From a virus (Duplodnaviria > Caudoviricetes), in IMG/VR virus record IMGVR_UViG_3300005611_000091, positions 1 to 36,188 of that record: 36,188 nucleotides of DNA; one strand, given 5' to 3'. This document shows positions 823-18,402 of this stretch, one piece after another. The position numbers and the translations under genes are program-made. A model generated the notes under the pieces. It ran no database searches, had not been told where the DNA came from, and saw only the letters and a list, made by a program, of their open reading frames with translations. Numbering within the stretch: position 1 is the first letter of the stretch; each line of letters opens with the position of its first letter.

Positions 823-2358
823 TTATATTACCGCGTAATCCATGCCCTTGGCAACAGGCATTCTTCCCAGCCTCCGGCGGGCGGTGGCGTTGTCCTTCCG
901 GGCGATCACCCGGTCGAAGGTGATTGCCAGTGCATCGCCGTTGTTCGGGCTGGCATACCCCCGCCGCTTCATCTTGTCCTTCGGCTCCAGCTTCAACTGC
1001 CCCTTGAGGCTGTAGTCGTACATCGGTGCCGCCAGGTCGTCGCACAGCGGCCCGTCGTCGGGCAGGGTGGCTGTTGGTAGCCAATCCCTCATCTTCCCCC
1101 ACAACTCGGTCCTGCGGTTCGCGTAGACGTCCTTGTTGTCCGGGCTACCGCCCGCCGTAACCTCGATCACCCGGAAACCGTATTCCTTCATGATGTCGAT
1201 CACCCCGCCGCCGACACCATCACCCTCGATGAACACCGCGTCGGGTTTGTACTTCTCGATCGCCTCGGCGCAGTGCTGTGCCAGTTCAACGATGCTACAT
1301 CGCTTGTATTTCTGCCACGGGATGATACTTGCGTCCCGGCCCTGCCGGAACGCTATCACCGCCTCGTCGTCGCCGAACCGTGCCGGGTCAACGCCCATGA
1401 CGAGGGCCGCACCTGGATCATCGGTCGGTTCGCGGGCCTTGGCGTCGTCCACCTCGCCCCGGCTGATGAACTGCGTGTCGCCCTGCCGCGGGAACATGCC
1501 GTAGACCTCGACCCGGGCCTCGTCCGAGTCCTCGCCGTACTGGTCGATGATGTCCTGGTAAATCTGCGCGTCGTTCTCGCTCACGGTGCGCGCGTCGATC
1601 GTCGCAGTGTCCCACGTACTGCGGTTGCCGTTGAAGCACTCGAAGAACGCGCCGGACGGATTACGCGGGTTGCTGATCGCGATCCAGAAGCGATGGACCG
1701 TCGAGTCGGTGAAGAAGCCCTGTGTCACAGGCCAGATGACCGAGGGTATGCCGCTGGCCTCGTCGAACAGGACGGTCATGCCCCGTTGAGAGTGAAGCCC
1801 CGCGAAAGCGTCGGGGTTCTCCTCGGACCAGAGCGATGCCTCGATGTACCAGTATGCCGGATCGAAGTCTGTTGTCTTGAGCAAGGCTTCGATCAGCCAC
1901 GGTGCCGGCTTGAGGCTCATAGCGTTGTGGTCGTACCAATGGGCGTTGATCGCCATTGTCGCCCACTTGCGAATCTCGGGGAACGTCCTCGTCCGTAGCT
2001 GGCCTTCCGTGTTCGCACTGACGATTGTCGTGCTGGAGGGTATGCATGAGAACATCCAGCCCGCGACCCATGCGAGGAATGCCGACTTGCCGATCCCGCG
2101 CCCTGACGCTCGGGCCATCTTCAACAGTTCCGGTGCGAGTTCCTGCCGCTGGCGGTTGCGGTTCTCTGCGATGTGGTCCCGCATCTTTGCGAGGGCAATT
2201 CTCTGCCACTCGCGGGGACCGTGGTCGTTTTCCAGAGGGGAGTTCGGTTTGCCCCACGGGTAGGTGTACATGACATATGCCAGTGGGTCATCGGCGAAAC
2301 CGAGCATTGTTGCCAGCAGTTGCTGGTCTTGCGCTGTAGGTTGGTACTTGTTGGACAT
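823..2358 (-). CDS. terL: Terminase large subunit
   Basis: Walker A ASGRGIGKS, Walker B VLFDEASG, ISNP coupling motif, nuclease motif GVDPARFGDD, C-terminal SPNNGDALA. Confidence 0.96.
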   Translation of the reverse strand: MSNKYQPTAQDQQLLATMLGFADDPLAYVMYTYPWGKPNSPLENDHGPREWQRIALAKMRDHIAENRNRQRQELAPELLKMARASGRGIGKSAFLAWVAGWMFSCIPSSTTIVSANTEGQLRTRTFPEIRKWATMAINAHWYDHNAMSLKPAPWLIEALLKTTDFDPAYWYIEASLWSEENPDAFAGLHSQRGMTVLFDEASGIPSVIWPVTQGFFTDSTVHRFWIAISNPRNPSGAFFECFNGNRSTWDTATIDARTVSENDAQIYQDIIDQYGEDSDEARVEVYGMFPRQGDTQFISRGEVDDAKAREPTDDPGAALVMGVDPARFGDDEAVIAFRQGRDASIIPWQKYKRCSIVELAQHCAEAIEKYKPDAVFIEGDGVGGGVIDIMKEYGFRVIEVTAGGSPDNKDVYANRRTELWGKMRDWLPTATLPDDGPLCDDLAAPMYDYSLKGQLKLEPKDKMKRRGYASPNNGDALAITFDRVIARKDNATARRRLGRMPVAKGMDYAVI

Positions 2359-2424
2359 TTTTAAAAAATTTTAAAAAATCTGGCGGCGTGACCACCACAC
2401 GTTTCACGGCGCGGCGCGAAATCC

Positions 2425-2436
2425 GGGGGTACCCCC
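2425..2436. other. GGGGGTACCCCC palindrome with adjacent C-runs; candidate packaging or terminus signal
   Basis: Perfect 12-bp palindrome in the terS-terL gap, near A/T tracts; function inferred from position only. Confidence 0.4.
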
Positions 2437-2537
2437 CGCCATACCCCCCCGTCCAAAATGCGGCAAGCGGCAGGCCGGCACCCGTTCGCGCTGCAACCAA
2501 CAAGGGAAAGCGCGCCAGATATCCAGCGCCAAAATGT

Positions 2538-2550
2538 TAAGTGTTTGATT
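2538..2550 (-). promoter_or_regulatory. IHF binding site
   Basis: Minus strand AATCAAACACTTA is an exact match to WATCAANNNNTTR, with an A/T-rich 5' flank. Confidence 0.65.
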
Positions 2551-2563
2551 TTATTGGGTTTGT

Positions 2564-2591
2564 TTGTCGCATAATGTGTATTATGGATAAA
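2564..2591 (+). other. dif: dif-like XerC/XerD recombination site
   Basis: TTGTCGCATAA-TGTGTA-TTATGGATAAA vs E. coli dif GGTGCGCATAA-TGTATA-TTATGTTAAAT; 11-6-11 layout, central 18 bp match at 17 positions; intergenic. Confidence 0.75.
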
Positions 2592-2611: not shown

Positions 2612-2965
2612 TTACCGCCATTTCTTAACATCCTCTGAATCTGGCGTTATATCAATGACCTGGCTTTGCATTTTTTCGAGCCGGGCCTGTGCGGTAGCCA
2701 TAGCGTCTGACAGGTTTATGACGGCTAAGGTGTGGCTTGTGTTGACTTCGCTCGGTATCACCTTACCGATTAGCGCCGCATACGTCTTGCGGTCTTCCTG
2801 AGCCATTGTGATTAGGTAATCTTTGCCGCCAACGTCGTGGAAGCTCTCTCTTAACGCCTGCAAGACTTCTTTACCTAGCGTCATCTGATCTTTAGGCCGA
2901 CCGCTAGGATTAATTGACGGCGCGCCTTTTTTCATTGCGGGATTTCCGCGACCGCGTTTAGCCAT
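2612..2965 (-). CDS. terS: Putative terminase small subunit
   Basis: N-terminal KKGAPSINPSGRPK motif, VGGKDYL...YAALIGKVIP helices, C-terminal VIDITP; upstream of terL. Confidence 0.75.
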   Translation of the reverse strand: MAKRGRGNPAMKKGAPSINPSGRPKDQMTLGKEVLQALRESFHDVGGKDYLITMAQEDRKTYAALIGKVIPSEVNTSHTLAVINLSDAMATAQARLEKMQSQVIDITPDSEDVKKWR

Positions 2966-3093: not shown

Positions 3094-3870
3094 ATGAACA
3101 TGATCACGAATATTACGGAACTGAAAAAAGCACTAAAGCGCGGCACCTGGACGGGCGTAGTTTTGTATGACGGTCCTAGCTTACTTGATGGCGCGCCTAT
3201 CGTCGCGATTGCCAATCGAATCGAAGTTTCATCCAAAAACGATAAAACGGGCGCAATGGTCCAGACTTGGATCATACCGAGAGATATAGATCCGCATGCC
3301 GCGACTAAATCCGGTGACGATTCCAGCGTATGCGGCGATTGCCCATTGCGACCGGCAAACGCTGCGAAAAATGCGCCGCGCTGTTATGTCAAAACATTTC
3401 AAGCCCCTAAATCCACTTGGAAAGCATATCATCGGAATCGGTATGCGCGCCCGGGCGTGGATTTTGATGCCGCGCTATTGCCGGAATTGTTTGCCGGTAA
3501 AACCGTTCGCATTGGCTCATATGGCGACCCCGCAGCTGTGCCGGTTGCTATCTGGCGCGACTATACCAAACACGCCAAAGCATGGACAGGTTATACTCAC
3601 CAATGGCGCGATAATGACGCATTGCGCGAGCTTGTAATGGCCAGCGCAGATAGCGCGGCGGATCATGCCAACGCGCTAGCTATGGGATGGCGCTCGTTCC
3701 GCGTTCGTTTGCCAGGCGAAAAGCTTGGGAAAGCGGAGATCGCTTGCCCGGCATCCAAAGAAGCTGGACAGCGTACGCAATGCGCCACGTGCAAGCTTTG
3801 CCAGGGCGCTAGCATCGCCGCTAAGTCAATCGCGATACGCGACCACGGGCCGGCTGCTAAGCGGGCTTGA
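3094..3870 (+). CDS. Cys-rich conserved phage protein (Gp88-like, possibly a degenerate radical-SAM fold)
   Basis: NDKTGAMVQTW, VCGDCP...CYV, VRIGSYGDP, GYTHQW, MASAD, CPAS...CATCKLC, terminal DHG. Confidence 0.7.
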   Translation: MNMITNITELKKALKRGTWTGVVLYDGPSLLDGAPIVAIANRIEVSSKNDKTGAMVQTWIIPRDIDPHAATKSGDDSSVCGDCPLRPANAAKNAPRCYVKTFQAPKSTWKAYHRNRYARPGVDFDAALLPELFAGKTVRIGSYGDPAAVPVAIWRDYTKHAKAWTGYTHQWRDNDALRELVMASADSAADHANALAMGWRSFRVRLPGEKLGKAEIACPASKEAGQRTQCATCKLCQGASIAAKSIAIRDHGPAAKRA

Positions 3871-16898: not shown

Positions 16899-17290
16899 TT
16901 CACCAATTCAAAATGCCAAAGGTCGTCGAACTTGTTGTCGTTCACTTGCCAATCAGAATCCCAATCACCACCCCAACGAAGATGCACCCCGCGAGCGTGA
17001 GCCAACCCCAGAACAAACCCTGCGAACAGAGTGGCCCTCTCACGATCTTTCCAATCAATCGGATATGGCGCAGCATCCACCGCTTTAGAGGGCCGGGTGT
17101 TATGCGAACTGTTGGGGTAGCTGACCTCGCTCTTACCCGTTCGAAAGGCCTCATCCTGGTCATCCTTGTTCCGGTAGCCACAGATTATGGTCACGTCCAT
17201 ATAATCCGCCACTTCCCTGAACACGTCAACAATTCTCGGGTCGCACGTCCCAAGCTGTCTCAGGCTATTTGCCGAGTAGGGATACTTCAT
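16895..17290 (-). CDS. Endolysin, M15 L-Ala-D-Glu peptidase-like
   Basis: Start MKYPYSANS at 17290 after GAGG; CGYR..DQ, SSHN..PSKAVD, RWGGDW, DLWHFEL. Confidence 0.92.
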   Translation of the reverse strand: MKYPYSANSLRQLGTCDPRIVDVFREVADYMDVTIICGYRNKDDQDEAFRTGKSEVSYPNSSHNTRPSKAVDAAPYPIDWKDRERATLFAGFVLGLAHARGVHLRWGGDWDSDWQVNDNKFDDLWHFELVK

Positions 17291-18402
17291 CTTGACCTCT
17301 TGAATGTGAGATAGTCGCAGGCTTCTTCGAGATCGGGGTAGCACCGGACGAACCCCGGCGACTGTGGGTCGGCCTCGGGATCGATGATCGCAACCACTGT
17401 AGCGCCGTGGCTGTTCTGCCCGAACTGAAGCTTGTCTGCGTAATCGTCGATGAACTTGTAGCCGCGCGCCTTGCCGGCCCAGTACGTCATGTCGAGGTCC
17501 GCATAGACGCCCTCGGTCATGTGGTATTCGTGATGATGGCCCTGCATCAACACCCGCGGACACATCTGGCCGAACAGAGCCGCTCGCATGGCACCGTGCG
17601 CCGGGTTGTAGATCGACGTGCCTTTGAAGCTGTGCGCGGCCCAGATCGGGCAAGTGCTGCCATTTGGCATCACAAGCTGGAACTTGGCGTGCCAATCAAA
17701 TATCTGCGTCACGCCATCCGCCATCTCTCCGAGGACCGCAGCGCCGTCGTTCCAACTATCGTGGTTTCCGAGCAACCACATCAACCAGTTTATGCCGCTG
17801 TCTTTCATCAGGTATCGTGCCAGGTCGTAGCCTGTCTTTTTCGATGTCTCCTGGTCTGCGTACTTCTTGATGAGCCTGCCGACCCAGTTGTTCGTGGTGT
17901 CACCAATGTTGATCGCGTACACACCCTCGGTGGCCCGCATCAGGCCGATGTCGCGCTCCAGCAGCGGCCAGTTGCACCCGTCGTCGTCAACGTGAGGGTC
18001 TCCGACGAACGCCAGTGCGAACGGTTTGCTGTCCTTCACCTTGATCGGGAACCACTGCTTCGATTTGTGTTTCTCATGCCGCTTCGCGAAGCGTTTACTC
18101 ATTGAGGATATGAGTTCTGCGACCGGCATGTCGCCCTTCGGGAACTCCGGCATCTTCAGTACCGGCTCCGCCTCGGACACAGGCCACTGCGGGAAGGTCT
18201 CAAAAGGCCGGTACTCTTTCCGCATTTCCTCCCACCGGGGGGGTAAGAGCGATCTTTCTACCGCTGTGCGTAAGTTCCGCCGCAACGTGGTGGAGTTTAT
18301 ACCGAGAGCGCGACCGGCATGACTAAGGTTGAACTCAAAATGTTGCGCGGCTGAGACCCGCCGCCGTAACTCCTCATCGCTTATCTTCGGAGTCGCCATC
18401 AC
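17287..18402 (-). CDS. HTH plus calcineurin-like metallophosphoesterase
   Basis: N-terminal NLSHAGRALGINSTTLRRNL; GDPH, GDTTN, GNHD, AH, GHHH motifs. Confidence 0.85.
   Translation of the reverse strand: MMATPKISDEELRRRVSAAQHFEFNLSHAGRALGINSTTLRRNLRTAVERSLLPPRWEEMRKEYRPFETFPQWPVSEAEPVLKMPEFPKGDMPVAELISSMSKRFAKRHEKHKSKQWFPIKVKDSKPFALAFVGDPHVDDDGCNWPLLERDIGLMRATEGVYAINIGDTTNNWVGRLIKKYADQETSKKTGYDLARYLMKDSGINWLMWLLGNHDSWNDGAAVLGEMADGVTQIFDWHAKFQLVMPNGSTCPIWAAHSFKGTSIYNPAHGAMRAALFGQMCPRVLMQGHHHEYHMTEGVYADLDMTYWAGKARGYKFIDDYADKLQFGQNSHGATVVAIIDPEADPQSPGFVRCYPDLEEACDYLTFKRSR

Follow-up and report, generated by a model that had tools for sequence, protein, structure and literature searches.

A dif-like site paired with an IHF motif in tailed phages, and its possible role in the joining of virion ends by host Xer

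Why should a tailed phage with no visible integrase carry a dif-like site inside its terminase locus? The question is raised by IMG/VR record IMGVR_UViG_3300005611_000091, a linear virus record of 36,188 bp that is 91% complete and was analysed over its whole length (the window). Its initial annotation pointed to an 11-6-11 dif-like site with the centre TGTGTA and to a consensus for integration host factor (IHF) 13 bp away, both in the gap between terS and terL, and offered three uses for them: (a) integration at host dif, (b) joining of terminally redundant DNA by host Xer, and (c) dimer resolution of a plasmid-like prophage. Our analysis reveals that the pair is a real, conserved and widespread phage element, and that the second use fits best with the geometry of a nearby G/C run and with the freely varying centre. 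It is on balance probable that both virion ends carry the site and that host XerCD, likely helped by IHF, joins them as a circle or a concatemer.

The site, its arms and the host

The features of the locus are as follows.

823..2358, minus strand: large terminase subunit TerL, 511 amino acids (aa); matches phrog_2 (E 1e-34) and phrog_5902 (E 1e-43)
2538..2550, minus strand: match to the IHF consensus, binding predicted; 13 bp from the XerC-type arm (family spacing peak 13-14 bp)
2564..2574, plus strand: XerC-type arm, 11 bp; all 11 bases identical to the XerC-type arm in loci L280 and L288 and in phage C72C1
2575..2580, plus strand: 6-bp centre TGTGTA, where strand exchange is predicted; selected in length throughout the family, variable in sequence
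2581..2591, plus strand: XerD-type arm of alphaproteobacterial type, 11 bp; same inner arm in chromosomal sites of 57 of 151 Alphaproteobacteria
2612..2965, minus strand: probable small terminase subunit terS, 117 aa; from its position, from homologues ahead of terL in related phages and from a DUF5681-like look-alike

The 28-mer at 2564-2591 consists of two 11-bp arms with a dyad inner core around a 6-bp centre, and by this layout and its arms it is a dif-like XerC/XerD site. The core is unique in the window even when 3 mismatches are allowed (1 match; 0.01 expected). The match to the known IHF consensus is perfect and, taken alone, weak, as 0.41 were expected and 34 of 100 shuffles had one. 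The layout, the spacing and the position of both motifs in the terS-terL gap are all borne out, terS being a probable identification. The same holds for the lack of an integrase: no tyrosine integrase was found in this 91% complete record, whose missing part falls between the portal gene and the capsid region. The agreement of the core with E. coli dif at 17 of 18 bases refers to what we take to be the E. coli sequence; the core also differs by a single base from the one with the centre TGTATA, which makes up 12 of 62 alphaproteobacterial matches (counted by eye).

Comparison with alphaproteobacterial dif upholds the resemblance. The inner arms match mostly single-copy sites in the 57 genomes listed above (62 matches against 14 for a reversed control), as well as in Pannonibacter, and the asymmetry of XerC-type and XerD-type arms is likewise present. 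This arm match suggests that the host of the window phage belongs to the Alphaproteobacteria.

Spread of the element and selection on it

A loose pattern for the pair returned 120 stretches; as about 1100 chance matches were estimated, it was replaced by a strict one. The spacing between IHF motif and arm peaks at 13-14 bp (35 of 121 loose-pattern matches). The strict pattern occurs in about 250 IMG/VR stretches (119 fetched) when the centre is 6 bp and in 1 when a 7-bp control centre is used, so the pair at this spacing is not a product of chance. Metagenome contigs yield about 310 matches (118 fetched), a set that overlaps that of IMG/VR. The 119 viral loci contain 78 distinct sites, whose outer bases converge on dif. 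The geometry is phage-specific, the composite being found in 1 of 401 Pseudomonadota genomes, as a single match with a low score.

Most carriers have the element near terminase genes. Of 47 viral loci flanked by 1.5 kb or more on each side, 43 have terS or terL near the site by tblastn, and 2 of the remaining 4 have terS by PHROGs; a second set with the same flanks gave 15 of 22, the other 7 comprising 3 loci with terminase-like matches and 4 low-scoring ones, one of them a bacterial match. The TerL families concerned are phrog_2 together with 5902, 2472 or 31467, phrog_675, and the T7-like phrog_38. Among relatives of the window phage, usable upstream DNA was available for 69 of 80 loci; of the 26 with 61-73% TerL identity, 6 have a strong and 3 a weak site, and of the 43 with 46-53% identity at most 2 have one. 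The element is patchy among kin.

A single one of 24 named phage records bears the site, namely C72C1 (OQ984150.1), a circular record with no host given, in which it lies between terS and terL; a literature search on this phage found no paper. The site is absent from the stretches examined of HTVC010P, HTVC106P, P26218, Venkman, MEP301, CRP-113, Hodr, RpY1, DU_RP_II, Syn5, ProddE, RHEph01, BcepC6B and others. HTVC106P has a near-palindromic 11-6-11 sequence of low dif-profile score between the gene in terS position and terL (L150:1509-1536). TerL queries from loci L040 and L083 retrieved no named phage at the cut-offs used, and blastn of the element against named phages gave short matches only, small microviruses among them. 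Two metagenome contigs, L421 (563 kb) and L374 (133 kb), were rejected as carriers, their scores of 7.5 and 6.0 being treated as chance. Around the element of one virus record, G168 (L478:5870-5930), the open reading frames (ORFs) are without PHROG match, and none of those tested is a terminase. In L479 and L480 (G174), and also in G177, the element adjoins terL, and the phage's own 356-aa tyrosine integrase and a helix-turn-helix (HTH) repressor are encoded elsewhere. A transposase gene begins about 80 bp from the site in L413:3122-3595.

Within the site, A at position 25, which a passage of PMC2731167 names as highly conserved in dif, is present in 71 of the 78 distinct sites and CG on one arm in at least 71; these bases served to orient the sites, so the side on which they fall is by construction and their presence is not. 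In a relative about 85% alike, 0 of 41 motif bases are changed against 19 of 105 in the flanks (Fisher p 0.002; one contig, depth 4.4). The first and last bases of the centre are conserved, and the 132 distinct strong sites across the viral and metagenome sets have 86 different centres. Centres ending in ATA account for 15 of these 132 against 40 of 62 alphaproteobacterial matches, the host centres having been counted by eye and the comparison made without a computed test. Five centres, which differ in their XerC halves, occur in six close kin whose arms are of the alphaproteobacterial type. The IHF motif adjoins the XerD-type arm in 82 of the 132 sites and the XerC-type arm in 50; in L077:3001-3090 and L287 (about 190-260 bp before terL) IHF motifs in inverted orientation flank the site on both sides. 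Degenerate sites are seen in L004 (about 3310) and L294 (about 450 bp before terL), where GAT replaces CAT in one arm, and both arms look XerC-like in L160, L181 and L188, of the group related to C72C1.

A predicted virion end and its proposed joining by host Xer

Between the site and terL lies a further feature, which is predicted, by analogy with annotated phage ends, to be a terminus or a terminase signal.

2359..2450, no strand assigned: cassette of an A/T tract, a hairpin-like stretch and G/C runs (2425-2450); shared by close kin whether or not they have the site

Immediately ahead of terL, all close kin inspected, with the site or without it, have G runs, a GC-rich stretch and an A/T tract. 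Among 44 distinct sites for which terL was located, 19 lie between terS and terL, 18 before terS, 5 before terL with no terS found and 2 after terL; given those upstream of terS and downstream of terL, the terS-terL position is incidental. A G/C run lies within 320 bp of 41 of the 44 sites, and in all 41 it is on the terL side, at a median of 51 bp. The position of the site thus tracks the run and not gene order. The T7-like carriers have the order A tract, C run, site, IHF, 0.8-1.2 kb past terL. L004 resembles RpY1 in having an HNH-like ORF that separates the run from terL, and in L001 and L007, two kin without the site, short tandem repeats extend the 3' end of terS.

Annotated direct repeats in two phages bear on the meaning of the run. 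The 357-bp repeat of phiM5 includes the 3' part of the gene in terS position, an IHF-like motif and a C/G run, and ends just past the run, 35 bp before terL; the 281-bp repeat of the T7-like vRsoP-WF2 has an A tract ahead of its start, which is 451 bp past terL and about 25 bp short of a C run. Seen from the run, both repeats stretch in the direction opposite to terL, and the dif-like sites are found on that same side. On this analogy the repeat boundary of the window may lie near 2390-2400 (about 2394), which would place the site 170-197 bp inside, within either repeat length. phiM5 is described as temperate in PMC10386132, and the part of that source consulted has nothing on its ends. A contig start at 2395 was rejected as evidence of a terminus (single run, 0.05 of words, contigs only). 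An excess of contig ends within 150 bp on the side away from IHF (10 against 3.8 expected, p 0.006, 141 loci) was also set aside, because it is confounded by dropout at G/C runs and by contigs common to both collections.

In the reading we favour, the 28-mer would lie within a predicted short direct terminal repeat, with one copy per virion end, and host XerC/XerD would join the two identical copies on one linear molecule, IHF probably bending the DNA beside the site and helping the ends to meet. Injected DNA would become circular, or joining between copies would give head-to-tail concatemers, and neither a phage recombinase nor a match to host dif would be needed. A free centre would be tolerated because the copies are identical and recombination is of self by self; a linear molecule that bears the same site twice in direct repeat offers Xer a natural substrate, and the sequence of the centre does not matter. 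Passages of PMC3130261 state that XerC makes junctions at dif without FtsK and that full recombination needs FtsK; at cer, where accessory proteins are in control, a cellular resolvase completes the junction that XerC has made (PMC5357621, in part). In the phage, an XerC-made junction would be possible, and exchange might be completed without FtsK by replication, by XerD or by a resolvase such as the VRR-NUC protein of the window. More tentatively, and at somewhat less than an even chance, we suggest that a portable terminal cassette is common to many tailed phages that are unrelated and mostly lack an integrase, ranging from T7-like to phiM5-like ones, and that host XerCD would there join linear ends in an IHF-directed and FtsK-independent manner.

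The selection of the 6-bp centre over the 7-bp control and the occurrence of the site with TerL of several PHROG families speak for end joining. Several observations weigh against it. The domain DUF3653, which we take to represent XafT, is found in 0 of 31 records, the window included. Many kin manage without the site, which, being patchy among close relatives, is not essential. The phiM5 repeat is an analogy only, since the TerL proteins of phiM5 and the window are 30% identical. Of 11 kin that lack the site, 6 still have IHF-like motifs close to the run (0.065 expected per 450 bp), and these motifs may have a function in packaging. A stereospecific accessory site would hardly be expected to lie on either side of the core, as the IHF motif does. 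Among the 24 named records, none with annotated ends bears the site, and G168, a 392-kb record, has the element without a terminase nearby. Finally, dif recombination requires FtsK or accessory factors according to passages of PMC3130261 and PMC5357621, and no mention of IHF was found in the consulted part of the latter, a review of Xer.

Self-by-self logic explains the free centre equally well if the site resolves dimers or concatemers of replicating circles, in a lytic or carrier state, much as cer and psi do and with IHF as accessory; a terminal repeat would then be unneeded. An accessory-type motif at fixed spacing recalls cer and psi as described in part of PMC5357621, and most plasmid prophages encode XerCD-like resolvases (PMC8026635, in part). 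We nevertheless hold this use to be unlikely: ParA was found neither in the window nor in any other of the 31 records (PF13614 search; ParM and TubZ types were not searched for), no HTH_3 repressor is present in the window (12 of the 30 other site-bearing records have a match), and the occurrence of 41 of 41 sites on one side of the run is left unexplained. The plasmid-like prophage of option (c) thus loses ground on ParA and on the unexplained tie to the terminus motif, and dimer resolution of replicating circles is retained as a candidate.

Binding without strand exchange is distinctly unlikely. XerC/XerD and IHF would then act as an end-protecting cap, or in duplication of the repeat, in the terminase cut or in tuning of terL, which would suit the IHF-like motifs of the phiM5 repeat and those that site-less kin have close to the run, the ability of either arm to face IHF, and the sites with two XerC-like arms. 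The strict 6-bp centre and its conserved first and last bases, however, fit a cleavable site, although cooperative binding could need them too.

Integration, the first proposal of the initial annotation, would make the site an attP for host dif, as in the integrative mobile elements exploiting Xer (IMEX), and would separate terS from terL. The XerC-side half of the window centre, TGT, matches the common host centre TGTATA; VGJ-type integration needs such a match (PMC5357621, in part), and gokushovirus dif motifs vary in spacer yet integrate (passages of PMC7062461). Integrases are also rarer with the site (3 of 30 against 7 of 17, p 0.023; the groups are unmatched and partly incomplete). Against this, the half is conserved neither in kin nor in the family: TGT, TAT or TTT begins the centre in only 24 of 132 sites, and close kin differ in it. 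No site lies within 1.5 kb of terL at 20 prophage loci (18 of 401 Alphaproteobacteria), where the best score is 8.3 against 29.5 for the window, and 185,579 species genomes contain one close prophage, which is unsplit and lacks the site. Prophages bounded by dif with terS and terL at opposite ends were not found in the genomes sampled. No host junction or one-sided host genes were seen among the metagenome and viral loci inspected (19 loci annotated; samples only), and G174 and G177 carry both the site and their own integrase. Because centres vary freely and neither a host junction nor a dif-split prophage was found, we regard integration as improbable, and option (a) is not supported.

Use of the site by a recombinase of the phage itself or of a helper, or as a point of exchange between co-infecting phages, is scarcely credible. 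In favour of such a use, the cassette is patchy, flippable and present in unrelated TerL families, and 3 of 30 site-bearing records encode a tyrosine recombinase; against it, the other 27 and the window have none, the arms track host-type dif, and differing centres would block exchange between different phages.

Gene content and relation to known systems

By gene content the window phage is of the podovirus type, with portal, TerL, capsid, tail tubes and internal proteins; primases, PolA, a DUF2800 exonuclease, the VRR-NUC nuclease and a helicase are also encoded. The record starts within the portal gene and stops short of the capsid gene, on its upstream side, and the few kb that are missing would therefore belong to the structural operon. 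Position and a DUF5681-like look-alike (33% of one cluster) provide a lead for taking the 117-aa ORF as terS; it has no Pfam match. An overlapping ORF (2361-2621, 86 aa) was rejected as a gene, having no family match, and a promoter scan of the window gave nothing above chance. Divergent from terS, a 258-aa cysteine-rich protein (3094-3870) matches phrog_2554, of unknown function, and a 371-aa protein at the end of the late operon (17287-18402) matches a DNA repair exonuclease family.

For phages whose terminal repeats span a few hundred bases, the route to circles or concatemers is mostly a matter of assumption and not of demonstration. If host Xer does join their ends, it would have a fourth role beyond integration and the resolution of chromosomes and of plasmids, and lytic phages would depend on their hosts in a way so far without description. 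Abundant phages of water and soil would then have xerC, xerD and IHF as host factors, IHF would be a new addition to the accessory proteins of Xer, and Xer would be seen to act on linear ends far from the septum. The arms could serve as a marker for predicting hosts and termini of uncultured phages, and the element counsels caution before lysogeny is read from a phage dif. No description of dif-like sites at tailed-phage ends was found in the parts of the literature searched, and a prior one is possible.

The element resembles the chromosomal dif/XerC/XerD/FtsK system of Alphaproteobacteria in its 11-6-11 layout, inner arms, A25 and non-coding, AT-rich setting (PMC2731167, in part). It differs in lying on phages, in its variable centre, in its IHF-type motif at fixed spacing (1 of 401 chromosomes) and in the lack of polarity of FtsK-orienting polar sequences (KOPS), 3 of which occur in the 36 kb of the window.

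With IMEX (CTX, VGJ, TLC, gokushoviruses and non-tailed vibriophages; an inovirus integrated at dif is described in part of 10.1101/633727) it shares a dif-like site on an integrase-less phage. Unlike them, it has no conserved centre half, no prophage found at dif and no XafT-like DUF3653, and it belongs to large tailed double-stranded DNA genomes.

At plasmid cer and psi, as is proposed here, host XerCD acts on a pair of sites that the mobile element itself carries, and a motif for an accessory host protein adjoins the core. Their accessory region, of about 180 bp, serves PepA with ArgR or ArcA (PMC5357621, in part), whereas the phage element has a single IHF consensus and is found on tailed phages, at a predicted terminus. 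In cer and psi the accessory region is always on one side of the core; in the phages it is divided between the D side (82) and the C side (50).

P1 Cre/loxP circularises terminally repeated DNA. A passage of PMC2409434 describes its part in dimer resolution, and none on circularisation was found in the part of that source consulted. In contrast to P1, the phages considered here would rely on a host heterodimer in place of a phage recombinase, have a predicted short fixed repeat and lack a partition system. What the two would have in common, if host Xer does join the ends, is the site-specific joining of repeated virion ends.
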